Source of the DNA: a virus
Direction: 5' to 3' (one strand)
Length of the DNA stretch: 35,231 nucleotides
IMG/VR virus record: IMGVR_UViG_3300020047_008563
Position numbers and translations under genes: made by a program. The notes below the pieces were generated by a model that had not been told where the DNA came from, did not search any database, and saw nothing but the letters and a program-made list of their open reading frames with translations. Positions 5,746 through 20,891 of the stretch are shown here, piece by piece; positions within the stretch are counted from its first letter, which is position 1; each line of letters opens with the position of its first letter.

Positions 5746-8610
5746 CTACCTCCCGTATCCAGCTTTTTTAGCGGTCCAGTCCGCGGTCACATAAGAATCG
5801 GCTTGGTCACCCCAAACTCTGATCTGGCCAATACCACCCTTCCAGTGATCGGTGGCAAGTTGAGCTGTGATACCCGCGCCCACAACCAATCTGTCCCATC
5901 CTGGTAGGATGCCATTGACGCCGGTCACGGTATCCCGAAGGACGCCGTCAATATAAACTCGAATGTCGTAAGTGCCGGTATCGTTTGCGCTCCACGAAAT
6001 ACCGTATTGATGCCATTGGTTTTTCACAATGCCAACAGGGCCATAAATAGCGATGTCGGGGCTTGGGCCTGCAAAACTGAAGTGTATGATGTCATCAACA
6101 AAGTGAAGGTCAAAAACATGCGTGCCTTGATCGCCTACGATTGACAACAAATTAGGGCCATCGCTGTTTTCAATGTCTGAACTGTCGCAATCCAACCATG
6201 CCCATACTACGGCCGTGCCGCTCTTTGGGTTAAGGTTTCCGGCCGTTTTGTACCATAAATAGTTGGGCTGAATTTCAACCGTTGTTGTCGTGGTCTTGAT
6301 GAACGTGCCAGGTGCTTGAATGTTACAGAACTGACCCGCGCGCCTACGTTCCATCTGCATACCGGAAACTAAAAGAGTGCCTGTTGCATCAAGTATTAAA
6401 CGCATCTGAGCGTTGCCTGTTGCAGCTCCAGTGAAATCCACATATTTAAACACATGTTGCCATGTGGTGGTTGCCGTAAACGTCGCCGTTGCTGTTTGAG
6501 GGGTTCCTCCCGAATCACCTTCAACAATGATTTTTCCGGCTAAAGTTCCAGAGGCCACCTTGACCCAGGCGCTCACCACAAAAGAATTGTCGGCGGCCGC
6601 AAGAGAGATCGCTTGCTTGATTCCATCGTTGGCAACGCCAGCAATCGAACCATATGGCATATTTGCGCCAAAGGCGTTTCCTACCGCGTTCGTGATGGTT
6701 GGCGTACCAACAGCCGTCCATGTGGTTCCAGGTGCACACGATTGCAAAATGAAGTTTTTATTTAAAGGCTCAAATTGCATGCCCTTGTTTGTGGCTGAGT
6801 TGAGAGGCGGTGCGGCTGGGTAGGCTGGGTTTGCGTACGATGCCAATCCCGCATAAGTGTTTGCATCACTGAAATAGGGCTGTTGCGCAACGATATTTCC
6901 AGTGTGGGAAAAACTGCCAGGTAACAAGGTACCTTCGTATTGCACCACTTGGTTGTTGAATGTGGTCGGTGCTGGCGTGACACCAAGGTCAACCTCAAAA
7001 AGTAAACCCGTTCCAGGCGTTTCTTCAAATTCAATTAACCCACCATTGTAAAGCTCAAGGGCTTCTGCATTAGTAAGCTTCTTAATCCACATCGTGAAGT
7101 TTCTAAACGTTGCAAATGATGACCAATACTGGGGCGTACCTGAATGCTGACCGAGGTAAAGATCAAGGCCGGCTGTCCAGGTCGTAAAGGCCAAAGTCCC
7201 GTCATAGTAAATTTGACCGTTAACAATTAAGGAACGCTCAGTTGAATCTTTCCAGGTGACGACAACATGGTTCCACACGCCGGCTCGTAAACCCATACCG
7301 TTGACGTTCTTGGCTGCGTTGCCAATGTAAAACACTGCGTTGGCCTCACTGGATTCAAGCATGGCAAATTGTTCACTGCCAAGGCTGAAGTAATCCGTGA
7401 TATTTCCTTCGTTGAGGATGGTTCCACCGCGGCCAGTTTTTACCCAAAAAGAAACCGAACCCTCAGCTCTTGCCCCGTCAACTGTGGCCGATGGATAGGT
7501 GCACACTTCTGTGTTTGAGAATTTGGTGGTGTTGGTGGTTTTAACGTAAGGACCAGCACACGCACGAGCTCGCATGTTAGATCCGCCAGTGTTTCCGGCC
7601 TGCTGCATTTGAGCGCCAAAAGCTCTACAGGTGTTGGAGGTATCGACAATAACGCCACATGCCAAAAATCCGGTTGTGGTCGAAGGGAAGTTTCCGTAAA
7701 TCTCAAAGCGTTGCCACTCTGTTGTGAGTCGGCACTCTTGCAAGACTTTCAAGCTTGAATCCACGGTGTCGCGCAATTGCAATTTGACCAACTGCGTGCC
7801 GGTCGTACATTTCAAAAAGATTGAGAATAAATAGGCTTTGGTTGGACTGGCTGGGGCTCCGCTGTTAACGGTTGCATATCCCGTGATCTGTTCGTAACCG
7901 TCTCCAGTTGCAGCACCAATGATACTGTCACCAAGCGTTGTACCAAAAGGATCTACGGCCGTGTTGCCTGCGACCGATCCTGTACCAATGGCCGTCCATT
8001 CGGCTTGGGTTAAATCTTCAGAATAGTAAAGTAAGTTTTCGGTTTCACCCGTAAGCTCAAGACCTGAGGCCAAAGAGTCAGTTGACCCAAACACTGTTGC
8101 ACCAAATACGGGTACCGTGGTCGCAACCTGGGCCAGAGTCCTTTTGCTGTTGGCGTAGTTACGAATCAACGTACGTGTGAAGGTTGGCGTTGGTCCAGTT
8201 GTAGATGTAAGAGATCCATCCAAAGGTGTACGAATAATGATATTGGCACTCTGAGGATAGGCCGAAACCGTAAGGGTTGTATTTCCAGAGACGGCTCCAA
8301 ACGTTGCCGAAATTGTCGTGGGGCTTCCACTTGCGGCGACCGTTGTTGCCAAGCCTGTTGTGGGCGCAATCGTGGCCACTCCGGTGTTACTCGAAAGCCA
8401 AATACATGAAGACGTAATGTCCGCCGTAGTTGCGTCGCTATATGTTCCCGTTGCGGTAAATTGAACCGTTGGTACGTCATCAAGGATGGTTGAAGCCGCG
8501 GGGGTAACTGCAATTGAAACCAAGGTGACTGGAGCAGGTCCAGAAGCTGGGGGGTAGATCCCAAACCCAGCCGATGGATCAACGTTCTCTGGAAATTTTG
8601 TGAAACTCAT
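5746..8610 (-). CDS. Tail fibre / receptor-binding protein (954 aa): Big_2 Ig-like domain plus two [CBM-like + LamG/ConA-like] units
   Basis: ATG at 8610 (TAATG coupling) preferred over the track start 8634. The N-terminal VTLVSIAVTPAASTILDDVPTVQFTATGTYSD...SSNTGVATI...TLTVS matches the Big_2 pattern. SVSFWVKTGRGG...VWNHVVVTW and AVVWAWLDCD...NQWHQYGISW resemble LamG. Confidence 0.8.
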   Translation of the reverse strand: MSFTKFPENVDPSAGFGIYPPASGPAPVTLVSIAVTPAASTILDDVPTVQFTATGTYSDATTADITSSCIWLSSNTGVATIAPTTGLATTVAASGSPTTISATFGAVSGNTTLTVSAYPQSANIIIRTPLDGSLTSTTGPTPTFTRTLIRNYANSKRTLAQVATTVPVFGATVFGSTDSLASGLELTGETENLLYYSEDLTQAEWTAIGTGSVAGNTAVDPFGTTLGDSIIGAATGDGYEQITGYATVNSGAPASPTKAYLFSIFLKCTTGTQLVKLQLRDTVDSSLKVLQECRLTTEWQRFEIYGNFPSTTTGFLACGVIVDTSNTCRAFGAQMQQAGNTGGSNMRARACAGPYVKTTNTTKFSNTEVCTYPSATVDGARAEGSVSFWVKTGRGGTILNEGNITDYFSLGSEQFAMLESSEANAVFYIGNAAKNVNGMGLRAGVWNHVVVTWKDSTERSLIVNGQIYYDGTLAFTTWTAGLDLYLGQHSGTPQYWSSFATFRNFTMWIKKLTNAEALELYNGGLIEFEETPGTGLLFEVDLGVTPAPTTFNNQVVQYEGTLLPGSFSHTGNIVAQQPYFSDANTYAGLASYANPAYPAAPPLNSATNKGMQFEPLNKNFILQSCAPGTTWTAVGTPTITNAVGNAFGANMPYGSIAGVANDGIKQAISLAAADNSFVVSAWVKVASGTLAGKIIVEGDSGGTPQTATATFTATTTWQHVFKYVDFTGAATGNAQMRLILDATGTLLVSGMQMERRRAGQFCNIQAPGTFIKTTTTTVEIQPNYLWYKTAGNLNPKSGTAVVWAWLDCDSSDIENSDGPNLLSIVGDQGTHVFDLHFVDDIIHFSFAGPSPDIAIYGPVGIVKNQWHQYGISWSANDTGTYDIRVYIDGVLRDTVTGVNGILPGWDRLVVGAGITAQLATDHWKGGIGQIRVWGDQADSYVTADWTAKKAGYGR

Positions 8611-8972
8611 TAGACATTCACTCCCGAGAACCAAGCCTGTAATTCGCCTGAACCTGAGGTGTTGGTGAATGTGATACGCATGGCCGCGGCTCTAAGGTGA
8701 TCCATGTTGATAAAAGCGTTTCCATCAACGCCAGCAGCAGCAGGCTGAGGGCTGAAGGGAACAGGGGTCCAATCGTTGGAAGTTCGTGCGTATGGGCCTG
8801 TCGTATTGGGGTTATTGGTAACCTCAACGTTGAAGTCTCCAACAGCGTCTCCGGTCCAAACAAATTGAACCGATTGAACGGTGAGAAAATTGGTATCAAT
8901 GACTTCGCTGACAATGTCGGCCGACATGTCTCCGTCTATGATGGCGTGGAATGATTTGAGTGCGTTGTTCAT
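8610..8972 (-). CDS. Small virion-module protein (120 aa), translationally coupled to the tail fibre (possible fibre adaptor)
   Basis: ATG with AAAGGAGCTCATC upstream; stop overlaps the tail-fibre ATG; beta-rich composition. Confidence 0.55.
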   Translation of the reverse strand: MNNALKSFHAIIDGDMSADIVSEVIDTNFLTVQSVQFVWTGDAVGDFNVEVTNNPNTTGPYARTSNDWTPVPFSPQPAAAGVDGNAFINMDHLRAAAMRITFTNTSGSGELQAWFSGVNV

Positions 8973-9028: not shown

Positions 9029-11848
9029 TTACCTATTTACGACCTTTTGTAAAGCCGTACCTGTTCTACTACTTAAATTTAATTTGTCCGCACGCGCTGG
9101 GGTGGCCTTTGAGGAACCTTGAAACGCAGCGTCTTTTTGTTGCTGTTGCTTTGTCATCCCTTGAAGCAAAGCTTGAGATGAACGGATAAAGTCTGGGCTT
9201 TGGGTTTTTTCCAAAGGCTGACCCAGAAACATCGCCGTTGGGTTTCGGTTGGCGATTGGCATCATTTTACCAGCCGCATGTTGTTTGGTTATGGCCATAA
9301 TAACCTGGCTCTTCATGTCGGCGTAAAGCTCAGGATAGACCTGGGTCATTACCTCAAGCGCTTCTTTGGAAACGATCTTGTTTTTCACATCCTTGAGAAC
9401 GTCCTGAGGCTTGTTGATAAACTTGATCGTTTTGGCAAGGCTTGCGATCTGATCTCGGCTAGGCGCGTACTTGGGGTCGAGTAACAAATTGGGCTCTTGT
9501 GGATAAATTGTGGATATTTTAGAACTGAGCAAGTTAATGGCGCGAACGGCGGTCATGTTGATGGCGGTGGCAATGTTGGGCGCGTTTTCCGTAACCCCTT
9601 TCATGCTCTGGGTCAGCCTATCAATCAATACGTTTGCGTCATTTGTGACAAGGTTCACATCATCTCGAAGTTTTTCAAGCTCCTTGGCGTGATCTTGCGA
9701 AGTTTTGTTGGTTAAAAACTTGGTGAGGCCCTTTGATTCTTCAGCCACATGGGGCTCGGTTGTAAACATAGATTTTACTGTTGCGTTAATATTGGCTTCA
9801 TAGCGCTGATTGGCTTTTTCTAAAGCTACAAGGGTACCTAACTTTTGATCGGCCTCCTCAACATTGTTATGCATGTCTAAGAACGCCTTCACACCAACAG
9901 GGGTCATAAGCTGGCCATACCCTGAGGATGCATCAAAAAGCTTACTTGTTCCCTCGCCAATACCTTGGGTGATTTTTTGAATAATATTCTTTGAGGATGC
10001 GCTGCTTTCCATCCTTCCAAGCAAAATATCTTGGATGCCCTTGGCTTGAATCTGCTTTACGAAGTCAGGCATCTCACCTGTCAAAACCATCTTCGCCGTA
10101 CCACTTAGAACTTTGCCGGGTATTTCCGTAGGACGTGCAAGGATGTCGAGGTTTTGCGCAACGTTGGCGCCCCAGGTGCCTTTTTGTAAGCCTTGCGCAA
10201 GTTCAGGGTTGATTTTGCCAAACACTAAGTTGGCTTTGACTGTTTTACCAATGTCGAGCCCAATCAAGTCGCCAAGTTTGGTGAGGATGTCCGCATCTGC
10301 CTGCATGGTCGGTTTCATCGAGCCATAAAGTTGATTTTGGAAAGGTTTCACCACACGATTTTCCGTCCAGTTTGAAATCAAGTCGCTCTTGATGTCTCGA
10401 AGATCCATTTTGAAATGGTTTTCGAGGTCTGTTGAAAGCTTCACGAGCGGCGCGTACTCTTTCATCACGTCCCGATAACCTGGAACCTTGGTTTTTAAGA
10501 ACTCATCAATATTGCGCTGAGCATCGTTTAGGGTTGACGAAATGAAATCATCTTTCAAACCTTCTCGAATGGAATAAATCTTGGTTTCTTTGCGAAGCAT
10601 CTGCAAATTACGCCTAACATCTGGGGCGCTTATTTGGGCAGGCATGTCGTCCGCTGCGTCTACAAACTCTTGAAGCCTGTTGTATGCTTTTTTCCCAATT
10701 GGCGTTCCAAAGTCTGGGCTTTTTTCGATGCTCTTTTGAACATCTTTGAACATCTTTTTGTAGGTGTTTCGCCCCATATAAATGGGAGTGTTGTCGAGAA
10801 TCTCACTTGCCTTGGCTTCCATCTCATCGGTCATTGAGGTGAGCTTATGCATCGACTCTTCAAGCTTATCTGCAAGGGTCACTTCTGTTTTGCTGGCAAG
10901 GTTAAGGGTCGGAACCTCATCTGTACCAATTTTTGCAAAAATAGTAGGTTTTCCCGTGGCGTCGGGCGCTCCAAACTCTTTGATAAAATCTAGATCATTT
11001 TGTTTTAAAGGGTTTTTAGGGTTGATCGCCTCAGCTTGCTTGAGAATTTTCTCATCTGGCATGTCAAAAACGATCTTGCCTTCTGCCTTAAAAGGTTGAG
11101 ATCCTTGACTTGCAGCCACATCATCGGCGGCCTCAATTGTTTCACGTGGAACACTAGCGGCGGCCGCCACGTCATCGGCCTCTTTCACGGCGGTTTTAAC
11201 TTGCGGTAGTATCTTTTTGGCACCAGCTCCTAGGGCCGAAATGACACCACCTATGCCAGCACCCAAAAGTGTACCAATTCCAATCTCAGCAAACGCCCTT
11301 TGAGCGGTGAGCGTTGGGTCTCCTAAGGCTGCCTCACTGATAGGCTGAGACGTTGCAAAGGCAGTGCCTTCAATAGCTGATCCAATTGTCGCTGCAGCAA
11401 TTTTCTTAGCCGATTCACCGGCAATGAATTTTCCTGCAACATTTTCCCCAATTTTGGCAGCGCCTTTGACCAAGGCTGCGCCTGGACCTGCGAGCGATGT
11501 ACCAACAACACCCGCAATATCGCCAGCAGTAGAAGCACCTGGATTGTATTCTTTGAGCCCTGCAAGCGTTTCAGGCTTCACAAGCCCTGTTTGAGTTAAG
11601 GCTACGTCTGAAAGGCCAAACGTTGCACCTCTTGCGAGACCTGCAAGACCCGCCTCAACGCCCCGATCACCATACTCCAAGGACTTGGCTTTTTCTGCAT
11701 CGTAAGCAAGCGCGGCTTCTTCAGATTGAATCTTATAACCACTTTGTAAAGCGGCTTGCAATTCACCTTGATCAATCGTGCCGATCTCACCATAAGGCGA
11801 AATGACATTGACCCTTTTGGGTGCTTGGGGTGTTAAAGCTTCGGGCAT
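9029..11848 (-). CDS. Large internal virion / DNA-ejection protein candidate (939 aa)
   Basis: Position equivalent to T7 gp16. Gly/Ala-rich hydrophobic segments (GIGTLLGAGIGGVISALGAGA). TAATG coupling to the upstream gene. Confidence 0.5.
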   Translation of the reverse strand: MPEALTPQAPKRVNVISPYGEIGTIDQGELQAALQSGYKIQSEEAALAYDAEKAKSLEYGDRGVEAGLAGLARGATFGLSDVALTQTGLVKPETLAGLKEYNPGASTAGDIAGVVGTSLAGPGAALVKGAAKIGENVAGKFIAGESAKKIAAATIGSAIEGTAFATSQPISEAALGDPTLTAQRAFAEIGIGTLLGAGIGGVISALGAGAKKILPQVKTAVKEADDVAAAASVPRETIEAADDVAASQGSQPFKAEGKIVFDMPDEKILKQAEAINPKNPLKQNDLDFIKEFGAPDATGKPTIFAKIGTDEVPTLNLASKTEVTLADKLEESMHKLTSMTDEMEAKASEILDNTPIYMGRNTYKKMFKDVQKSIEKSPDFGTPIGKKAYNRLQEFVDAADDMPAQISAPDVRRNLQMLRKETKIYSIREGLKDDFISSTLNDAQRNIDEFLKTKVPGYRDVMKEYAPLVKLSTDLENHFKMDLRDIKSDLISNWTENRVVKPFQNQLYGSMKPTMQADADILTKLGDLIGLDIGKTVKANLVFGKINPELAQGLQKGTWGANVAQNLDILARPTEIPGKVLSGTAKMVLTGEMPDFVKQIQAKGIQDILLGRMESSASSKNIIQKITQGIGEGTSKLFDASSGYGQLMTPVGVKAFLDMHNNVEEADQKLGTLVALEKANQRYEANINATVKSMFTTEPHVAEESKGLTKFLTNKTSQDHAKELEKLRDDVNLVTNDANVLIDRLTQSMKGVTENAPNIATAINMTAVRAINLLSSKISTIYPQEPNLLLDPKYAPSRDQIASLAKTIKFINKPQDVLKDVKNKIVSKEALEVMTQVYPELYADMKSQVIMAITKQHAAGKMMPIANRNPTAMFLGQPLEKTQSPDFIRSSQALLQGMTKQQQQKDAAFQGSSKATPARADKLNLSSRTGTALQKVVNR

Positions 11849-13386
11849 TATTTAGGCCTAAACGAGGTTATAGGTTGAGTTTGGCTAGGTGTCTGGCCAG
11901 AGGCTCGATTGATATTCTCAATAGCCAAACGTCTTGCGTTTGTTTTCTGCGCCACCGTAGCCTCATTGTCTCCAGGTTTTGGGTAAAAAATGTCTTTCCA
12001 GCCGTTTCGTTCTTGTGGGGTAATTGCTCCACCTGAAACAAAACGACCATAGTTTTCAGAAAATTGATCGGCGGCCTGTTCGTATTGACGGCGTTGGTCA
12101 CCTTTTAAGAGGTCAGGCGTTGCCCAATTTGGGATGTATCTGCTGCGCTCTGTTCCCTTGTATTGCTCTGAAGAATTAGGGTTTTGTGAAAGCCCCGTGA
12201 TAACTTGCTCAGCCTGCAACATTCCACTGGCAAAGGCATTCGCTTTAGCTTGAGATTCAGTCATTGGCTTATTTGCACCAAGCGTTGATTGAATTTTGAG
12301 CATGTCAATCATGCGGTTGGCTTGACCTTCAGCAATCTTATTTTGTAGGTCGGCAAGCTTGAAACCAAGCTCTGCAAGACCCTGCTGCGCTTTGGCCTTT
12401 ACCATCTGGTTACTGGTTTGAGCTTCAACCATTTTTAATTGCGCACCGAACATATTGTACATATCAAGTTTTGCCGCATTTTCCGCCTGACCTAAATCTT
12501 GATACTGTTGAAGCTTCATTTTTAGAAGGTTGTTTTTCTTTCCCATTTCTTCTTTTTGCGCGTCAATATCTCTATTCACAAGGTCATCAATTGCCTTAGC
12601 CGCTGGGTTCACGCCTGTTTTGTTTTGAGACAATCCACCCAAAAACAAACCGATGATAGCCATCACACGGTTCACGCCGCCTTTGATACCAGTCTGACTC
12701 TTCCAAAAATGCCCAGGGTCAATTTTACCCTCTGAAACGTCTTTTTGAATTGCTTCGGTTTCTTGCTTTAATGCATTTCTTTCCGTTTCGTACTTCAATT
12801 TGATGGCTGCATTTTGCTCCGCAAGCTGTTTGTTTTGATCAAGCTGTGCCTTATAGCCCTGGTCAGCAGCAGCAACCTCTTGTTTGTAAGCATTCCTCAT
12901 TTCATTCATGGCATTTTGAGCAGCTCCCATGCCTGGCTGAGGAGGCATTTGAGGAATAGGTGTTTGAGGCGGTGGAACTAAATTTGTAGGCTGCTGGCTT
13001 TGCAAGGCTTCAGGCTGAGATGGTTGAGGTAAAGGCGCTTGAAGCTGAGGTTCTCCTTGTGCAACAATATTTCCAGTTGGCGTAACTTCATACCCAGGAA
13101 TGCGATCACCTGGGCCTCCTCCCATGGGAATGCTAAGAAGTTTTGAATCATCTTTAGGGGTAACACCAGTAGGAACAGCATCAGGCGCAGGTGTGGGCGT
13201 TGCATCCATTTGCAAACTCACCTCATCTGGCTTTAATTTTGGAAGTGATTTGATGACTTTAATTGTATTTTCATCCAAATCTTTTTTTGCAATAGGGAAC
13301 GTCATACCGTTGGCGCTTTGGACCATGTATTGATGATCGCCTTCGTCTACAAACTTAAGACCATTCACGTCCATGTTCTTGGCCAT
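11848..13386 (-). CDS. Internal virion / ejection protein candidate (512 aa) with P/Q-rich linker and coiled coil
   Basis: TAATG coupling at both ends; PQLQAPLPQPSQPEALQSQQP...PPPQTPIPQMPPQP linker; hydrophobic VMAIIGLFLGGL segment. Confidence 0.45.
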   Translation of the reverse strand: MAKNMDVNGLKFVDEGDHQYMVQSANGMTFPIAKKDLDENTIKVIKSLPKLKPDEVSLQMDATPTPAPDAVPTGVTPKDDSKLLSIPMGGGPGDRIPGYEVTPTGNIVAQGEPQLQAPLPQPSQPEALQSQQPTNLVPPPQTPIPQMPPQPGMGAAQNAMNEMRNAYKQEVAAADQGYKAQLDQNKQLAEQNAAIKLKYETERNALKQETEAIQKDVSEGKIDPGHFWKSQTGIKGGVNRVMAIIGLFLGGLSQNKTGVNPAAKAIDDLVNRDIDAQKEEMGKKNNLLKMKLQQYQDLGQAENAAKLDMYNMFGAQLKMVEAQTSNQMVKAKAQQGLAELGFKLADLQNKIAEGQANRMIDMLKIQSTLGANKPMTESQAKANAFASGMLQAEQVITGLSQNPNSSEQYKGTERSRYIPNWATPDLLKGDQRRQYEQAADQFSENYGRFVSGGAITPQERNGWKDIFYPKPGDNEATVAQKTNARRLAIENINRASGQTPSQTQPITSFRPK

Positions 13387-14969: not shown

Positions 14970-15344
14970 TTAAAGCTCCTTTCCATAGAGCACTCTTTGC
15001 CCTAAAGGTAATGCGCCAATCGTGTTGGCGTAAAGTTCTATTTTATTTACTTTTGAAAAACCTAATAAAAAACTGTAACCACGCTGCTTGGCATAGTTAT
15101 TCAAAATATGAAGAATTGATTCCAAAGCACATTGGCGCTCTACCTTGTCGGCGTGAGGGTGTGTGATGACATTCTCAATCAAGGCAATCCCTGAATCCGT
15201 TTGTGTGAGCCATCCCGCGGCCGTGTTGGGTACGATGTAACCGACGACCGGATAAAGCCGGCGATCAATGGGTGTTTCGTTTCGCAATCGGTACCATGAA
15301 TCAATATCATTCATGTCGGTGTCCTGGACAAGGCGCGGCATCAT
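14970..15344 (-). CDS. Small virion-module protein (124 aa), T7 gp13-like position
   Basis: ATGA coupling to the 986-aa gene; weak GNAT-like layout only (see rejected list). Confidence 0.5.
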   Translation of the reverse strand: MMPRLVQDTDMNDIDSWYRLRNETPIDRRLYPVVGYIVPNTAAGWLTQTDSGIALIENVITHPHADKVERQCALESILHILNNYAKQRGYSFLLGFSKVNKIELYANTIGALPLGQRVLYGKEL

Positions 15345-18301
15345 CCGAAGCTCCTTGATGCGGGCAGTTTGTTCGTTCCACGTTTTGCTCCAACAACAAA
15401 AGTGATTGCGCTCAAACTTAAGCCTTCGCCATAGTTTTCATCTTGAACCTCTTCTATGCCTATTTGAATGGCTTGGCATTTTTGGCGCTCCATGAATAGG
15501 CGGAATTGATACAAGGGGTAGGATCCACCGTAAGGCGTGGTATCACCATAAAACGCGTCATCGCCATAATTTGGGGTTGCCAACAGGTCACCCGGATTGA
15601 TGTAGGTTTGTTGCGAAGCATTTTCATTAAAATCATAGGCCACGGTAAGAATGAGGCGATGCAATGACTTATATTCGCCTAGCAAAAGCATCTGATAAAC
15701 GCGCTGATACCCTTGGAGCCCTGCAAAAGAGAGCCATCCGGTGACCGCTTTCATCTTGATAAAGGCGGTGCCATCCAAGTAAAGGCCTGGGGTTTCCTGC
15801 CATGGCGTTCCCGTTGGTGATAAGTATGTGAATAAGTTTTGAAACACTGTGGCGTCGGCCGCCAAGATGTTGGTGAAAATTGACCATTGCTGAAACAAGT
15901 AATCGTAGACAATACATTGGCCCTCGGCCGTGGCGAAACGTATTTGGTTGGTGTTTGGAACCAAGATGGTCGAGGTGATGGTCAAATCATTGTAAGCGTC
16001 AACGTCAACGCCTATGTATGAACAGTTGAGAGACCTATCAAGTAAGTAAATGCCTTTTTCACTTTTGAAAATGATGCCCAAAGGTGTGATTCCTATAGAC
16101 CGTGGATTGATACAGCCCGCATCTGTGGTGATCACTTGAGGTTTTGCGAAATCATCTTGCGTTCCCGTGTCATTGGGGCCGTCACCCGCTGTCAGCATGA
16201 TGATGTTTCGCTTAAAGATGATTAGCTTATCATCCATTTGGGCCAAACCCGTAATGTCTCCGCCAAACGGATTGACAGGCTTGACGAAAAAGTCTGAAAA
16301 CTCGACAGGTACGCCCTGGATAACTTCCTTTGAAAACCCAAAGTTGTTCTTGTTTTCGCTTGGAACATAAACAATTCGGTTTTTGTAGTTACAAATCAAA
16401 GACACGGCGGGCGGTGCAATGTTTTCGAGCACGTCGCCAGTTGTGTAAAGCAGTTGATTGCCGACCAAGTTCGTATTGGTAACCGCATCAACAAAGGTCA
16501 CTGTGTCGGCCGTGGGATCGTTAAACGTTGGGCTTGTGATCGAGGTCACTTTGTAGAATGTTTGACCAAGGGAAGTCGTACGATAAACGCCGATGATTAC
16601 ATCTGTTCGCCCATATGAGGTCCTTTTGGCTGTGAGTCGCAACGTTGGAATAACCACACTTACGTTGACCTTGTTCACTCCCAACACAAGCGTTTGAGGG
16701 ATCGAGGGCGCTGACATGTGGGTCTGACCAAGATTGTCTTTCCACTCATAAACGAAGCAATATTGGTAGGTGCCAGCGTCAATACCTGCGCCGTTTGCAC
16801 CCGCCGTCAATGTTCCTTGCTCAGGGTACAAATGAAAGCCATGCTCAACCACACTCACACCGTCATACATCGACAAAAAGCCACCGGTGAAATGAAGGTT
16901 TTCGGCAAGGGTTGCTCTTAAATAGGTGTTTTGCGAAAGAAATGAAATGTCAGCTTCAATTAAACCCTCTTGAGAAAACGTGACACCTGACTCAACACTC
17001 AAAGGCTCTTTTTTCCCAAGCGCCAACATGAACTCAGAGTCTGAAATCAAACTCACTTCAGGCAAAACGCTCTTGGCTGTAAGTCCCGCGCCCGTGCTTG
17101 TCGCAATTTTCCCCACCAAAAGCTTGTCGGTTGTTGATAGGAAATAGGTTGGTTGGAGTGTGGACTCATAGGCCAAGGTTAAATAAGAAACATCGTTATA
17201 AGTAAAAACCTTAGAAGCAAGCCCGACACTGCGCATAAATACTTCAGGCGTTCCAGGTGTGATGACCGTTGATACTTTTTCAAGCACGCAATCTCGCACA
17301 AGATGGTTGTATGTCGTGGCGGCTGAGATTTCATAAAAGAGCTTTAATGTTTCGTCGGTGGCTGAAGCCACGGAGGTGACAGCACCGGTGATATTTCGCA
17401 CATTGGCCACAGTCTCAACGTCAAAGGCCACGGTTTCGCTCAAGAGCGCGTAGGTCACGGCAAAACAACGCACCTTTGTGCCGTTGTAATACGCAACGTA
17501 GATGATTTGATTGCTTGAGCACCATACCGAGATGCATGTCGTTGGGTCTTCGCCTACTTCTTGATAATCCGAAGAAACAACGAGGTTGCTGTCAAGGTAA
17601 GCCACAGAGCAAGCTCCGATCGAGTTGTTCCAAGCATAGTACACCCTTGTTGTACCACACATACCCGCATCGAAACACGTATTGACCGGATCAACTGCAC
17701 TTGAAAGTGTTGTAGCCGCTGACAACGTGCCAGGGCTGTTGATGACGGCGCGTTTATAAACAAGGTTGGTGCCGTTGTAGTAAATAAAAATTAAGTAATT
17801 TCCTAAAGCAAATGCCTTTGGGCGCTGGCCACTGGCATCAAGAACGGCATCGCTCACCAAGGGTTGATTGGTTGTCGCATCAAGGACGGAATATCTTGTG
17901 CCGCCGCGCGTGTCTTCCCAACAAAACGACTTCAGGCCAGCAGGGTGATAAGCCGAATCCATGGATGATTGCTGGTACCCATTTGACACCACAAATTTGG
18001 AGTTGATCTCAAGGCTGACAGCCTGACCCTTACTCGTGAAACTACCAAGCGCCTCTGAGTAACTTGAGACGTTGATACCATCAAAAGCCACAAGTTCGTC
18101 CTTGTACGCTGCAAGCGCACTTCCTTGGCTGCCAATAGAAGGTAGCTCAGCATAGCCATTGCGTTTATCAAATCGCTTCACACTTAAAAACGTGGCGTTC
18201 TCAAGCAAAAGCATTTTGCCAGGTAGCACTTGCTTGGAATCGGTCTTTGTATCGAGACCCTTCTCAAAAGAAATCGAAACGTTTTGTTTGTTAAGCGCCA
18301 T
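15341..18301 (-). CDS. Large tail structural protein (986 aa), nozzle / tail tubular protein B-like by position
   Basis: Size and position downstream of the adaptor and upstream of the internal proteins, as in T7-like podoviruses; beta-rich repetitive sequence. Confidence 0.5.
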   Translation of the reverse strand: MALNKQNVSISFEKGLDTKTDSKQVLPGKMLLLENATFLSVKRFDKRNGYAELPSIGSQGSALAAYKDELVAFDGINVSSYSEALGSFTSKGQAVSLEINSKFVVSNGYQQSSMDSAYHPAGLKSFCWEDTRGGTRYSVLDATTNQPLVSDAVLDASGQRPKAFALGNYLIFIYYNGTNLVYKRAVINSPGTLSAATTLSSAVDPVNTCFDAGMCGTTRVYYAWNNSIGACSVAYLDSNLVVSSDYQEVGEDPTTCISVWCSSNQIIYVAYYNGTKVRCFAVTYALLSETVAFDVETVANVRNITGAVTSVASATDETLKLFYEISAATTYNHLVRDCVLEKVSTVITPGTPEVFMRSVGLASKVFTYNDVSYLTLAYESTLQPTYFLSTTDKLLVGKIATSTGAGLTAKSVLPEVSLISDSEFMLALGKKEPLSVESGVTFSQEGLIEADISFLSQNTYLRATLAENLHFTGGFLSMYDGVSVVEHGFHLYPEQGTLTAGANGAGIDAGTYQYCFVYEWKDNLGQTHMSAPSIPQTLVLGVNKVNVSVVIPTLRLTAKRTSYGRTDVIIGVYRTTSLGQTFYKVTSITSPTFNDPTADTVTFVDAVTNTNLVGNQLLYTTGDVLENIAPPAVSLICNYKNRIVYVPSENKNNFGFSKEVIQGVPVEFSDFFVKPVNPFGGDITGLAQMDDKLIIFKRNIIMLTAGDGPNDTGTQDDFAKPQVITTDAGCINPRSIGITPLGIIFKSEKGIYLLDRSLNCSYIGVDVDAYNDLTITSTILVPNTNQIRFATAEGQCIVYDYLFQQWSIFTNILAADATVFQNLFTYLSPTGTPWQETPGLYLDGTAFIKMKAVTGWLSFAGLQGYQRVYQMLLLGEYKSLHRLILTVAYDFNENASQQTYINPGDLLATPNYGDDAFYGDTTPYGGSYPLYQFRLFMERQKCQAIQIGIEEVQDENYGEGLSLSAITFVVGAKRGTNKLPASRSFG

Positions 18302-18623
18302 TTCTTAACCACCCATACTTGTAAGACATCAAGATTTTATTAGCTTCTTCGGGTTTTAAACGAGATCCATTAACATAGGCTTCCATTTCCCATTTCCATC
18401 TCCATGGGTTCCATAAAAACGGGCCACACAAAAGATAAAGGAACAAATATTTTAAAATACCGACGCGATTTTGCTGAACTATGTGCATGGTTTCATGCGC
18501 AATTGTTTTAGATGAAAGCGTTACCCCTTTGGGTTTATAAATAGTGTTGCCCAAAGTGGTGGCATTTTTATGGGCAAAAGGAAATGTGAAAATCCAGTAC
18601 CAGGCTTTATCTTTGATTTTCAC
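18291..18623 (-). CDS. Mini HExxH metallopeptidase-like protein (110 aa), DUF4157-like signature
   Basis: NATTLGNTIYKPKGVTLSSKTIAHETMHIVQQ resembles the DUF4157 block ...G..I.F......LLAHEL.HV.QQ. A downstream WEMEAY offers a possible third ligand Glu. GTG at 18623 preceded by AAAGGAGAC is preferred over the TTG at 18641. Confidence 0.55.
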   Translation of the reverse strand: MKIKDKAWYWIFTFPFAHKNATTLGNTIYKPKGVTLSSKTIAHETMHIVQQNRVGILKYLFLYLLCGPFLWNPWRWKWEMEAYVNGSRLKPEEANKILMSYKYGWLRNGA

Positions 18624-18648
18624 CGCGCCGTCTCCTTTCAATAGCCAT

Positions 18649-19851
18649 CTATAACTCGTAAGCTATCAAGTTAAAGGTGTTCACAAATCCTATGGTTGCG
18701 CCAAATTCGACATCATAGGTGTATGTTCCAGCGCCGCCATTATTGTCTACGTGAACAAGGTTAGCTGGAATTTGAAAGAATGTTGCCCCTCCTAAATCGA
18801 GTTGATATTTACAAATCCTGGTTCCATTTCGTCTGAAGTAGACCACACAACCAAAGCTTGGATCACCATCAAGGACGCTGGCATTAGACCCAGAATCGCC
18901 TTGAACCACGAGTTGAACGGGTCTTCCCGACGTCGTGATAACCACAGGAGCATAAGCCGCGGCGCCGCTATAGGCACCAGAGCCATTGATCCCAACACCG
19001 CCGACGCCAACTGTTGAACCAACCGACCTCGTCGTGGCTTGGCGCATTGAATTGGCACTCCCAGCCGTTGGGGTTGCATTGATGGTTAATGTGTCGCCTG
19101 ATGCATTACCAAGTGTTGTGTTGCCATTGACCGTTGCGTCGCCAGTAAACGTTGAATTGCCAGAAACCGACAACGATCCCGCAGAAACCGCGCCAGAAAC
19201 TGAAAGGCTGGCCAAACTAGGAGCATCCGTAAAAGACAACGCGCCGGTGTTTGAAGATTGTAACAACTTAGTCGATGCTGGCAATGCTCCTGGCCATGTC
19301 ATCGTATAATCTGAGACTAAGGTCACATCAGGCTGAAACGTAATACCTGGAGCCGATAAAGATTCACGCCGAAAGGTGAAGGGCCCAAAATCCATGGCCG
19401 CGGCTTTGTTGGTGTCTTGGGTAAAGGAGAAAGTTTTGGAGGCCGACGTGTAGAAGACCGAAGCCGTGGAGGTGGTGTAATCTCCTCCAATAGCTCCAAT
19501 CGACGCAGCGTTTAAGCCGCCGCCGGCCGTAAGTTGAATCTGTACACCGTTGCCGTCATTGTACCAAAGGTCAATCCCGGATCGGTAAACACATCCTAAA
19601 TCTGAAACGGTGCCAAGAGGTGAGATGTTGGCCGTAAGACGAAGGGACCTAAAGCCCGTCGCATTAAAGTCACCAAAATCCAAATCTCCGTTGATATTGA
19701 TACCCGCTGTAGGTACTTTGACACCTTTGCCCGTGGTGTGATCATGAGCATCAATGACACCAAAGGCGCTGTTGTTTTCTGTCGCATACAATGGCCCCGG
19801 AGTTATGGTTGGATCCGGTAGGAGTAGATTCATGTATGGGGTCGTGCTCAT
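18649..19851 (-). CDS. Tail fibre/spike-like structural protein (400 aa)
   Basis: N-terminal YMNLLLPDPT...NNSAFGVIDAHDH resembles fibre N-termini; central SLSVSGAVSAGSLSVSGNSTFTGDATVNGNTTLGN beta-helix-like repeats; AAGGAG SD. Confidence 0.55.
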   Translation of the reverse strand: MSTTPYMNLLLPDPTITPGPLYATENNSAFGVIDAHDHTTGKGVKVPTAGININGDLDFGDFNATGFRSLRLTANISPLGTVSDLGCVYRSGIDLWYNDGNGVQIQLTAGGGLNAASIGAIGGDYTTSTASVFYTSASKTFSFTQDTNKAAAMDFGPFTFRRESLSAPGITFQPDVTLVSDYTMTWPGALPASTKLLQSSNTGALSFTDAPSLASLSVSGAVSAGSLSVSGNSTFTGDATVNGNTTLGNASGDTLTINATPTAGSANSMRQATTRSVGSTVGVGGVGINGSGAYSGAAAYAPVVITTSGRPVQLVVQGDSGSNASVLDGDPSFGCVVYFRRNGTRICKYQLDLGGATFFQIPANLVHVDNNGGAGTYTYDVEFGATIGFVNTFNLIAYEL

Positions 19852-19860
19852 TTTTCTCCT

Positions 19861-20172
19861 TTAAAAAACCAGTATATCAACCGTCGCCACAGCGTCGGAA
19901 ATTAAGTTAAGGGTTAAATTAGGTAAAGGGTTTGTATCTTGAGTGTCGTAAATATTTGCAGCAGCGCGTTTTCTAACAATGACCCACCCGATCAGCCTTC
20001 TTGCCAAAGTATGGTTGATTGTATTTGATCCTACGACCAAGGGCACATTGGTTAAGATTGTGGAGTCGCTCAAGGGCAATTGCTGTAAATCCGTCAGCGC
20101 CGAAGTAATGTAGTCTTGAATGAGAGAGAGGTCTCGATTGTTCGTGTTGACTCTGGGAACTGAACGAATCAT
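19861..20172 (-). CDS. Small virion-module protein (103 aa)
   Basis: ATGA coupling to 20169-20891; position in the tail module. Confidence 0.5.
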   Translation of the reverse strand: MIRSVPRVNTNNRDLSLIQDYITSALTDLQQLPLSDSTILTNVPLVVGSNTINHTLARRLIGWVIVRKRAAANIYDTQDTNPLPNLTLNLISDAVATVDILVF

Positions 20173-20891
20173 AATCCGTCAAACCCATCGTAAAATCCAC
20201 CGCCTCCATAAAGATCGTAGCCAGTAAGCACGTCGGATACCCTTTGAGGAGATCCAGCGTCACGGTTCTCCGCGGCTTCTTCAATGCGTTTGATGATTTG
20301 GGCTTGTTGGGCAATGAACGGTGTGACATCGCTTTCCTCCTTGGCCATCATGGCAACACACATATCCAAAATGATGTAGAGCTCCCACCCTGACACACCG
20401 TCAATTAAGTCGGCGTCATCTGTAAGCTCAACAGGTCGAATGCTATCAAAAACTCGAAACACCTGACCGGCATTTGGGATAGGGCTAAACCAAAGCTTGT
20501 TCCCGCGTATTTTGTACCGGGTTGAAATACGCCCGATTGCTGTAGGAACTGTTTTAAGTACAAATCGGTTACGCTCGGCCATCATAAAGGGTTTGAGCGT
20601 GTACCATGCACTTGGATCGCTTAAGTTCACCGACATATCAACGCCGGCTAGCTTGTAGAAATCTTCAGGCAAATCAAAAGTGTCGTTGATCCCGTCCGCT
20701 GTAATAAGGAAGGGATCGCCGACAAAATAATCATCGCCAAATTTCTGAACCAGGATGTCATACAAAGCTTTGTATCCATGCGTCGCATAATTATTCATCT
20801 CGGGTTCAGTGAAAAACGTCGAATTGACGCGATCACAGCGTTCCCGAGCTTGCTGCTTGATACTTCCCAATGTGATGACACCCACGGCCAT
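20169..20891 (-). CDS. Head-tail adaptor / tail tubular protein A-like candidate (240 aa)
   Basis: Position after the capsid genes and before the tail genes; no motif recognised with certainty. Confidence 0.4.
   Translation of the reverse strand: MAVGVITLGSIKQQARERCDRVNSTFFTEPEMNNYATHGYKALYDILVQKFGDDYFVGDPFLITADGINDTFDLPEDFYKLAGVDMSVNLSDPSAWYTLKPFMMAERNRFVLKTVPTAIGRISTRYKIRGNKLWFSPIPNAGQVFRVFDSIRPVELTDDADLIDGVSGWELYIILDMCVAMMAKEESDVTPFIAQQAQIIKRIEEAAENRDAGSPQRVSDVLTGYDLYGGGGFYDGFDGL

Follow-up and report, generated by a model that had tools for sequence, protein, structure and literature searches.

A stretch of viral DNA of 35,231 nucleotides (nt; IMG/VR record IMGVR_UViG_3300020047_008563), referred to at its full length as the window, carries on its minus strand, among the late genes of a podovirus-like phage, a small gene whose product of 110 amino acids (aa) contains an HExxH motif. 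The gene and its product are called here the mini-gene and the mini-protein, and the coordinates of the features are collected in Table 1. From sequence and model comparisons, the mini-gene probably encodes an active, minimal, stand-alone zinc metallopeptidase of the gluzincin type, about 110 residues long. A first-pass annotation, made from the letters alone, had reported the open reading frame (ORF) without stating its strand; the frame is present where it was placed, and its translation includes the quoted peptide NATTLGNTIYKPKGVTLSSKTIAHETMHIVQQ.

Two start codons may be considered for the mini-gene. From the GTG, which is preceded by a Shine-Dalgarno-like sequence, the product has 110 residues; from a TTG at position 18641 it has 116, that is, six more. 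The shorter form is preferred, because all the close homologues align from the GTG position ('M.IK.K'). The 400-aa ORF upstream stops 25 nt before the GTG, and the ATG of the 986-aa ORF downstream overlaps the last 11 nt of the mini-gene, an overlap that the first-pass annotation had given correctly and that implies translational coupling. The description of a stand-alone mini-protein co-translated with tail genes also stands. On the plus strand over the mini-gene there is no notable rival ORF, the sole overlap being with a frame of 49 aa. No promoter-like or terminator-like signal in the flanks rises above shuffled controls, and the mini-gene is therefore read as part of the late operon. The hypothesis of a moron with a promoter or terminator of its own was rejected on the same grounds, the dip in G+C content (GC) of the mini-gene being within noise.

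This dip (GC of 37.8% against 45.2% in the window and 47–50% in both neighbours; GC at third codon positions of 0.40 against about 0.48) is suggestive of horizontal acquisition, though it lies within the sampling noise for 110 codons, and it is partly due to a composition rich in Lys, Tyr, Phe and Ile. The HExxH codons (coding strand: CATGAAACCATGCAC) coincide exactly with a terminator-like hairpin on the plus strand, a by-product of the two CAT/CAC His codons around ATG and not likely to be a regulatory element.

The decisive evidence for the mini-protein is its conservation. A word-indexed search returned nine close homologues (45–59% identical), an exhaustive profile search returned 465 representatives at E ≤ 1e-3, and a second indexed search, with a profile of 55 sequences, returned 1,827 clusters, mostly of about 180 aa, with no Pfam annotation among the matches listed. 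With a profile of the 110-aa form, 122 clusters of that form were found at E ≤ 1e-10. HExxH is kept in 104 of the 104 members of the 110-aa subfamily and is invariant in all four alignments made. In two broad alignments (55 and 129 sequences, 25–58% identical to the window protein), the residues invariant in both are H43, E44, H47, P68, R75 and E79. Y63 is invariant in the smaller alignment, Q50 and Y103 are invariant in the larger one, and the conservation of E81, A82 and Y83 reaches 90% or more in one or both of them. The glutamate of WEMEAY that the first-pass annotation had proposed as a possible third ligand of the gluzincin type is E79 of this list, 32 residues after H47; HExxH and this glutamate, within WExEAY, are invariant across the large family, in keeping with a zinc site of the gluzincin type, and E79 is the presumed third zinc ligand. 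A random protein of 110 aa would contain HExxH with a probability of about 0.003 (our own estimate, with H at about 2.2% and E at about 6%), and the pattern of conservation suggests an enzyme active site, not a chance motif.

The shortness of the mini-gene, its GTG start and its GC below that of the window are what might be expected of a chance ORF with a chance HExxH and no function. This explanation is refuted by the conservation data and is left with practically no probability: hundreds of homologues keep the length, the motifs and the start position, a Shine-Dalgarno sequence is present, and the predicted structure (see below) is confident. The members of the family have so far come from metagenomes only, and curated family models do not cover them. 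The window protein and a 180-aa relative, searched by tblastn against 50,697 phage records, gave nothing usable and thus no homologue in a cultured phage.

Two clades make up the 110-aa form, one in bacteriophages, to which the window protein belongs, and its sister in archaeal chromosomes. A scan with the close alignment of one genome per prokaryotic species gave four loci, all in archaeal genome bins. Three of them are syntenic Woesearchaeota contigs, on which ABCE1/RLI, ribonucleotide reductase and ornithine decarboxylase are encoded near the mini-gene; the fourth is on a 484-kb Methanosarcinales contig, beside PanE and CoaBC. A further copy was found on a 665-kb contig, near isoleucyl-tRNA synthetase (IleRS) and a TrmB regulator. 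When the 104 members of the 110-aa subfamily were clustered, they split into 52 and 52; all nine members with phage context fell on one side and all seven with cellular or archaeal labels on the other. The mean identity between the phage and archaeal clades is 43%. Several of the archaeal-clade copies score just under the Peptidase_M56 threshold.

The sub-threshold family matches of the mini-protein are all to zincin families, namely PF13699, Peptidase_M56, phrog_15610 'protease', selecase and Ste24p. PF13699 (DUF4157/eCIS_core), the family that the first-pass annotation had named for a Pfam scan, is indeed the sole Pfam match of the window protein, but with 18.7–18.8 bits (E of about 0.002) it stays below the cut-off of 22, and the match spans only model positions 39–77 of 79, the C-terminal half with the strand and the HExxH helix. 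PF13699 is matched by 22 of the 55 relatives at E < 0.1 (best 1.7e-5) and by ten members of the archaeal clade at 13–18 bits; a precomputed match to it is absent from all of the best 120 family members listed. Ten archaeal-clade relatives match Peptidase_M56 (PF05569) with 24.8–27.8 bits against a cut-off of 31 (E from 1.8e-6 to 1.5e-5), over profile positions 154–236 of 296. Among the 55 relatives six match Peptidase_M56 and three match PhageMetallopep (PF18894), and a precomputed PF05569 match is found, among the matches listed, in 13 of the 120 relatives; the window protein gives no match to PF05569 at E ≤ 1. phrog_15610 'protease' is matched at 1e-4, and by 13 of the 55 relatives. NCBIfam gave no meaningful match.

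In sequence searches of the PDB, the 55-sequence profile matched the 110-aa archaeal mini-peptidase selecase MJ1213 best (E = 0.028–0.087), over the strand and HExxH region only; the conserved 'TTIGxTIY' aligns with selecase 'NKTIYINK', as it does with PF13699 positions 39 onward. Selecase was missed by the profiles of 10 and 129 sequences, the latter having Ste24p (M48) as its best match (E = 0.71), and proabylysin and projannalysin were absent at E ≤ 10. Two further candidates were rejected. The matches of the 10-sequence profile to STEAP1 (E of about 3) are spurious, driven by the hydrophobic segment, and in a match to orf18 of the Legionella phage LME-1 portal-tail complex (9EFK, E = 0.24) the aligned residues are HENVQ, not HExxH.

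An AlphaFold2 model made with 129 sequences has a mean predicted local distance difference test score (pLDDT) of 85.3. Its elements are a strand (residues 2–5), a short helix (8–13), a hairpin (22–30), the helix with HExxH (38–54), a helix (56–65), the helix with E79 (73–86) and a last helix (91–98). This order is the one expected for a minimal zincin or gluzincin, as in the minigluzincin structures. Two models were compared by Foldseek with the PDB and one with BFVD. The top PDB matches are zincins, namely PPEP-1 (E = 0.2), the VgrG2b effector domain (E = 0.43–0.8), PPEP-3 and PprI, with template modelling scores of 0.34–0.38 for PPEP-1 and VgrG2b. In BFVD the second match is a DUF4157 phage protein (E = 0.063, probability score 0.98), and the top named matches are DUF4157, IrrE-like and SprT-like phage proteins. 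A zincin fold, for which the first-pass annotation had proposed a check by AlphaFold, is thus suggested by a confident model of zincin-like topology, but no Foldseek match to a solved structure is significant.

The first-pass annotation had likened the mini-protein to the DUF4157-bearing cargo of extracellular contractile injection systems (eCIS) and polymorphic toxins. [quoted passage not shown] Its own function is unknown, and it is dispensable for cargo loading in AlgoCIS (bioRxiv 10.64898/2026.05.27.728243). The C-terminal domain of VgrG2b is a DUF4157-annotated gluzincin of solved structure, with an HExxH motif and with H935, H939 and E983 as zinc ligands, which causes periplasmic toxicity and lysis (PMC6899460). 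The mini-protein shares with DUF4157 and VgrG2b (6H56) the strand-plus-helix signature '...G.TIY...(x)n...HExxHxxQQ', a glutamate on a later helix as presumed ligand, and an association with phage-tail-like machinery; VgrG2b is also the top PDB match by Foldseek of the better of the two models. In contrast, the spacing from His to Glu is 44 in VgrG2b and 32 in the mini-protein, and the Foldseek E of 0.4–0.8 is not significant. DUF4157 is an N-terminal or central module of a long toxin, whereas the mini-protein stands alone at 110 aa and scores below the Pfam threshold, and the family motifs LYLxxxP and NPWRxKWExEAY are not covered by the Pfam model. The cargo architecture itself is absent, the mini-protein having no extra domain: the model is ordered from residue 2 (pLDDT 90 over residues 1–10) and ends at 110, leaving no disordered loading N-terminus. 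At the window there is no eCIS or T6SS locus with sheath, tube or AAA+ genes, no fused or adjacent toxin domain and no immunity-like partner gene. Across the loci compared, the neighbours are structural or lysis genes.

A bona fide DUF4157/eCIS_core domain, which would be loaded in the tail or virion and injected, or would process an injected effector, as has been proposed for eCIS and T6SS cargo, would account for PF13699 being the sole Pfam match and being shared by 22 of the 55 relatives, for the DUF4157 protein in second place in BFVD and VgrG2b at the top of the PDB matches, and for a place among the tail genes of a machine related to contractile injection systems. It is nevertheless improbable, as the score is below the cut-off and restricted to half of the model, the relatives score higher on Peptidase_M56, and loading sequence, C-terminal toxin domain and eCIS locus are all missing from a podovirus-like phage with an SU10-type adaptor. 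Furthermore, the domain is not needed for loading in AlgoCIS, and the archaeal sister clade is chromosomal, beside ABCE1 and IleRS. We do not think that the mini-protein is an injected cargo of the eCIS type. The mini-protein is not a proven member of DUF4157; a better description is that of an orphan family of zincins, placed between DUF4157/eCIS_core and the group of M48, M56 and minigluzincins.

On the other side of that position, minigluzincins and selecase are archaeal stand-alone metallopeptidases of about 105–110 aa (proabylysin, 4JIU; projannalysin, 4JIX; selecase MJ1213, 4QHF-J). The mini-protein is like them in size, stand-alone architecture, predicted order of elements and the position of HExxH on a long central helix, and its sister clade is archaeal and chromosomal. 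It differs in that the sequence match is marginal and limited to the strand and HExxH, that their structures were not recovered by Foldseek, and that they have no counterpart of its phage distribution or late-operon placement. Minigluzincins are presented, in the work of Lopez-Pelegrin et al. (2013) as cited in PMC4559962, as soluble models of the M48 and M56 catalytic domains. With M56 (BlaR1/MecR1) and M48 (Ste24/HtpX) the mini-protein has in common an HExxH followed directly by a hydrophobic helix, and members of its archaeal clade match PF05569 positions 166–230 of 296, with E values around 1e-6 to 1e-5. After R75, an ExxA pattern resembles the 'ExxAD' motif of the M48 glutamate helix. However, the multi-pass transmembrane domains and the sensor domain are lacking, and the stretch from HExxH to Glu is short. 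SprT-like proteins, ImmA/IrrE (M78), PF18894 and phrog_15610 are likewise small phage HExxH proteins, but the matches to them are weak (E ≥ 1e-7), they lack the NPWRxKWExEAY block, and they typically lie in regulatory or replication regions instead of where tail and lysis genes meet.

The placement of the mini-gene was compared in ten independent phage backbones with the 110-aa form, the window and the contig L012 being counted as one (Table 1). In nine of the ten it lies in the late operon, by fibre-like or structural genes or an endolysin, and its frame overlaps or abuts its neighbours in the window, L009, L010, L011, L001, L013, L019 and L021. In L001 and L021 the mini-gene overlaps an endolysin gene directly beside it, and in L013, L009 and L019 the endolysin lies two to four genes downstream. 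The claim that the mini-gene is embedded between tail structural genes therefore holds for this phage and several others, but elsewhere the gene abuts an endolysin or small ORFs, and in the archaeal clade it is chromosomal. The mini-protein is 42–59% identical between loci whose neighbours show no detectable similarity, and an all-against-all BLAST found no partner (cognate fibre, immunity gene) shared across the loci, with the one exception of the L009 Laminin_G_3 protein. Unrelated neighbours around a conserved mini-protein indicate a portable one-gene cassette that is not tied to a particular partner. The preferred place of this cassette is in the late operon, where tail-fibre and lysis genes meet. 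As the endolysins are specific for murein, they indicate that the hosts are bacteria.

Table 1. Features of the window and of loci carrying relatives of the mini-gene. Numbers within gene orders are protein lengths in aa.
Feature	Locus	Coordinates	Strand	Remarks
Mini-gene, 110 aa	window	18291-18623	minus	GTG start at 18623; stop codon 18291-18293 (ORF list and sequence)
Shine-Dalgarno-like AGGAG	window	18632-18636	minus	8 nt upstream of the GTG start; read from the sequence
Residues 22-30, TTLGNTIYK	window	18534-18560	minus	predicted beta-hairpin (strands 22-24 and 27-30) before the active-site helix
HETMH (H43-E44-T45-M46-H47), HExxH	window	18483-18497	minus	presumed two zinc ligands and catalytic base; on predicted helix 38-54, pLDDT >90
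Residues 54-72, VGILKYLFLYLLCGPFLWN	window	18408-18464	minus	hydrophobic, aromatic-rich; contains Y63 (invariant in the 55-sequence alignment) and invariant P68
WEMEAY (W78-Y83)	window	18375-18392	minus	E79 invariant, on predicted helix 73-86 ('glutamate helix')
Terminator-like hairpin	window	18482-18501	plus	
49-aa ORF	window	18159-18308	plus	
400-aa late gene, fibre-like label	window	18649-19851	minus	weak match to phrog_14293 (PHROG function unassigned)
986-aa late structural gene	window	15341-18301	minus	weak match to phrog_511 'internal virion protein', 1.4e-5
SU10-type head-to-tail adaptor, 240 aa	window	20169-20891	minus	PF24175 SU10_adaptor, 4.6e-8, 34.2 bits against cut-off 27
512-aa ORF	window	11848-13386	minus	
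Patch of ~310 bp unaligned at the DNA level	window	12911-13220		inside the 512-aa ORF
Patch of ~310 bp, counterpart	L012	12755-13062		
962-aa Laminin_G_3 protein	window	5746-8634	minus	
841-aa Laminin_G_3 protein	L009	3691-6216		
Archaeal-clade copy	L014	5023-5355		
Archaeal-clade copy	L015	3094-3432		
Archaeal-clade copy	L017	1769-2113		
Archaeal-clade copy	L016	7995-8345		
Archaeal-clade copy	L022	6001-6342		
~180-aa copy	L003 (also L004, L005)	8001-8558		
~180-aa copy	L006	8001-8561		
~180-aa copy	L007	8001-8540		
Gene order	L011			two SU10 adaptors, 564, mini-gene (109), PHROG-511-like protein
Gene order	L009			545, 279, 84, mini-gene (109), 841-aa Laminin_G_3 protein, 98, M15 endolysin
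Gene order	P0006 locus			Mu-like baseplate, 260, 85, mini-gene (108), 127, 871-aa Laminin_G_3 protein
Gene order	L010			tail fibre (334), mini-gene (109)
Gene order	L001/L002			mini-gene (114) overlapping GH108 endolysin
Gene order	L013 (117-kb myovirus)			baseplate wedge, 166, 948, 625, mini-gene (109), 153, 73, amidase endolysin
Gene order	L019			305, mini-gene (108), 445, 411, 972, M15_4 endolysin
Gene order	L021 (112-kb phage)			lysozyme, mini-gene (112), overlapping
Gene order	L018			mini-gene in a run of small ORFs

The position downstream of a fibre gene is the classic place for tail-fibre assembly genes. In the window, L010, L011, L013 and L019 the mini-gene directly follows a fibre-like gene or a large tail gene, and its translational coupling suggests a matched dosage. 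These facts would fit an assembly factor or chaperone without catalytic activity, acting on the adjacent fibre or tail protein and retaining its zincin-like fold and metal site for structure or binding alone. A cognate chaperone, however, co-varies with its client, whereas the proteins upstream of the mini-gene are mutually unrelated and the mini-protein keeps its 42–59% identity. Since, in addition, the catalytic glutamate E44 is invariant, and not the metal ligands alone, and homologues occur away from any fibre gene (in archaeal chromosomes and in L018), such a role seems hardly probable.

The relatives of about 180 aa, which form a much larger subfamily, are found in phage accessory regions, including those of phage contigs of about 200–310 kb. 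On L003 the gene of this size lies between an AcrVA2-like gene and an HNH endonuclease gene, a position that might hint at an anti-defence role for the ~180-aa branch.

The segment at residues 54–72 of the mini-protein raises the question of a membrane. Its Kyte-Doolittle mean over 19 residues is 1.38 in the window protein, and the medians of the equivalent segment are 1.37 in the 110-aa subfamily and 1.86 in the 180-aa subfamily; the usual transmembrane threshold of 1.6 is reached in 30% of the 110-aa alignment and in 75% of an alignment dominated by the 180-aa form. The window protein has seven Trp, a net charge of +10 and this one hydrophobic segment only, which may be a core helix or an anchor at the membrane interface. 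Together with the hints of M56 and Ste24, the segment leaves open a peripheral or re-entrant association with the membrane. Another explanation is that the mini-protein controls lysis, either as an M48/M56-like mini-protease anchored in the membrane or as a small membrane protein. Residues 54–72 would serve as its anchor, monotopic or re-entrant, and its substrate at the inner membrane might be a holin, an antiholin, a spanin or a signal-anchored endolysin. A Trp/Tyr-rich hydrophobic segment following HExxH, the net charge, and Peptidase_M56 and Ste24p matches that reach into the segment all agree with it. So do the loci in which the mini-gene lies just upstream of an endolysin and overlaps it (L001), follows and overlaps a lysozyme (L021), or has an endolysin nearby (L013, L009 and L019). 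Yet the segment of the window protein falls short of the usual threshold, a transmembrane hairpin would not fit in the stretch from H47 to E79 (about 25 residues), and the AlphaFold model is a compact bundle of helices. Moreover, in the window and L011 the mini-gene is flanked by large structural genes, and no lysis gene was recognised in its vicinity. This explanation is therefore considered unlikely.

An active zincin, the reading preferred here, also has points that weigh against it. None of the curated family thresholds tested was reached, Foldseek gave no PDB match at E ≤ 0.001, and the best BFVD match, to an unnamed viral protein, is marginal (E = 5.4e-3). Most of the matches of hidden Markov models cover the strand and HExxH only, and hence could be driven by the motif. 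If residues 54–72 spanned a membrane, E79 might be put out of reach of the metal. Finally, placement is not uniform, the copy on L018 being among small ORFs, and the presence of the 180-aa relatives in accessory regions and of chromosomal copies in archaea means that the context implies no single phage-specific role.

The mini-gene itself, its conservation and its position are established, while the zinc site, the catalysis and the target of an active mini-protein are inferred and may be proposed as follows. H43, H47 and E79 would bind zinc, and E44 would act as the general base that activates water. The conserved hairpin 'TTxGxTIY' would be the edge strand that aligns the peptide substrate, and Y63, P68, R75 and the conserved Y83 would shape the site. 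As the mini-gene belongs to the late operon, with translational coupling to tail-fibre, structural or lysis genes, the mini-protein would be made late, with the virion and lysis proteins, and would cleave a protein or peptide target late in infection. This target would most likely be either in the cell envelope, with the mini-protein as an accessory of lysis or exit, or a component of the virion or tail, the two fitting about equally well. The adjacency to endolysins and the resemblance to VgrG2b, which acts in the periplasm, speak for the envelope; the position between structural genes in the window, L011 and L019 speaks for the virion or tail. Confidence in a specific substrate class is low.

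The region of the mini-gene is the late module of a podovirus-like phage, and its tail module is anchored by the SU10-type adaptor. The gene order is adaptor, 103 aa, 400 aa, mini-gene and 986 aa, and other late-module genes of the window encode a 625-aa portal-like protein and a 478-aa large terminase. The neighbours had been called fibre-like and nozzle-like in the first-pass annotation, in which their positions were right; the fibre and nozzle identities, with only weak family matches or none, are labels by position alone. The 400-aa protein has no Pfam match and no PDB sequence match. The 986-aa protein has no PDB sequence match and no match in the 50,697 phage records, and the L011 gene in the equivalent position matches phrog_511 at 4.3e-11. 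Most structural ORFs of the window have no match in Pfam or PHROG, and a scan of 30 ORFs revealed no recognisable endolysin. The phage has no cultured relative among the 50,697 deposited phages, with none of which its large terminase shares more than 26% identity. A near-identical protein on a contig of 35,497 bases indicates that the window is probably close to a whole genome.

L012, an independent IMG/VR contig, is about 99% identical to the window over 13.9 kb, and its copy of the mini-gene is 99% identical. A patch of about 310 bp inside a 512-aa ORF does not align at the DNA level between the two; the protein of this ORF is only 82% identical, whereas its neighbours are 100% identical. 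The patch resembles a hypervariable cassette confined to one place in what is probably a receptor-binding protein. The 962-aa Laminin_G_3 protein of the window shares 31% identity, along its whole length, with the 841-aa protein of L009, which is encoded directly downstream of the mini-gene; the window counterpart lies 10 kb from the mini-gene. In the Mu-like phage an 871-aa Laminin_G_3 protein is encoded one gene downstream of the mini-gene copy. There may thus be a loose association of the mini-gene with LamG-type host-recognition proteins.

Small HExxH proteins are common in phages, and a small HExxH zincin in a phage is, as a kind of protein, already known. The novelty lies in the family itself and its size, in its being missing from both curated models and cultured phages, in the spread of the cassette over unrelated tail modules, and in the archaeal sister clade. 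It may further be speculated, with considerable doubt, that the phage clade is an unrecognised class of late protease acting on the host envelope, either as a lysis accessory alongside the endolysin or as a tail-delivered entry enzyme that clears an envelope protein. It would then be a portable cassette of podoviruses, Mu-like myoviruses and phages of more than 100 kb, and kin to a housekeeping mini-protease of DPANN archaea and methanogens.

If active, the mini-protein would be among the smallest self-contained metallopeptidase scaffolds known, from a family that has about 1,800 clusters, escapes the curated family databases and is absent from the 50,697 phage records searched. It would also offer a minimal stand-alone relative for studying the role of DUF4157-like zincins in injection systems derived from phage tails. 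The recurrence of the mini-gene at the tail-fibre/lysis junction in unrelated backbones points to a portable late function outside the standard models of lysis and tail assembly, and the archaeal chromosomal clade would provide a second, cellular entry point to the same biochemistry.

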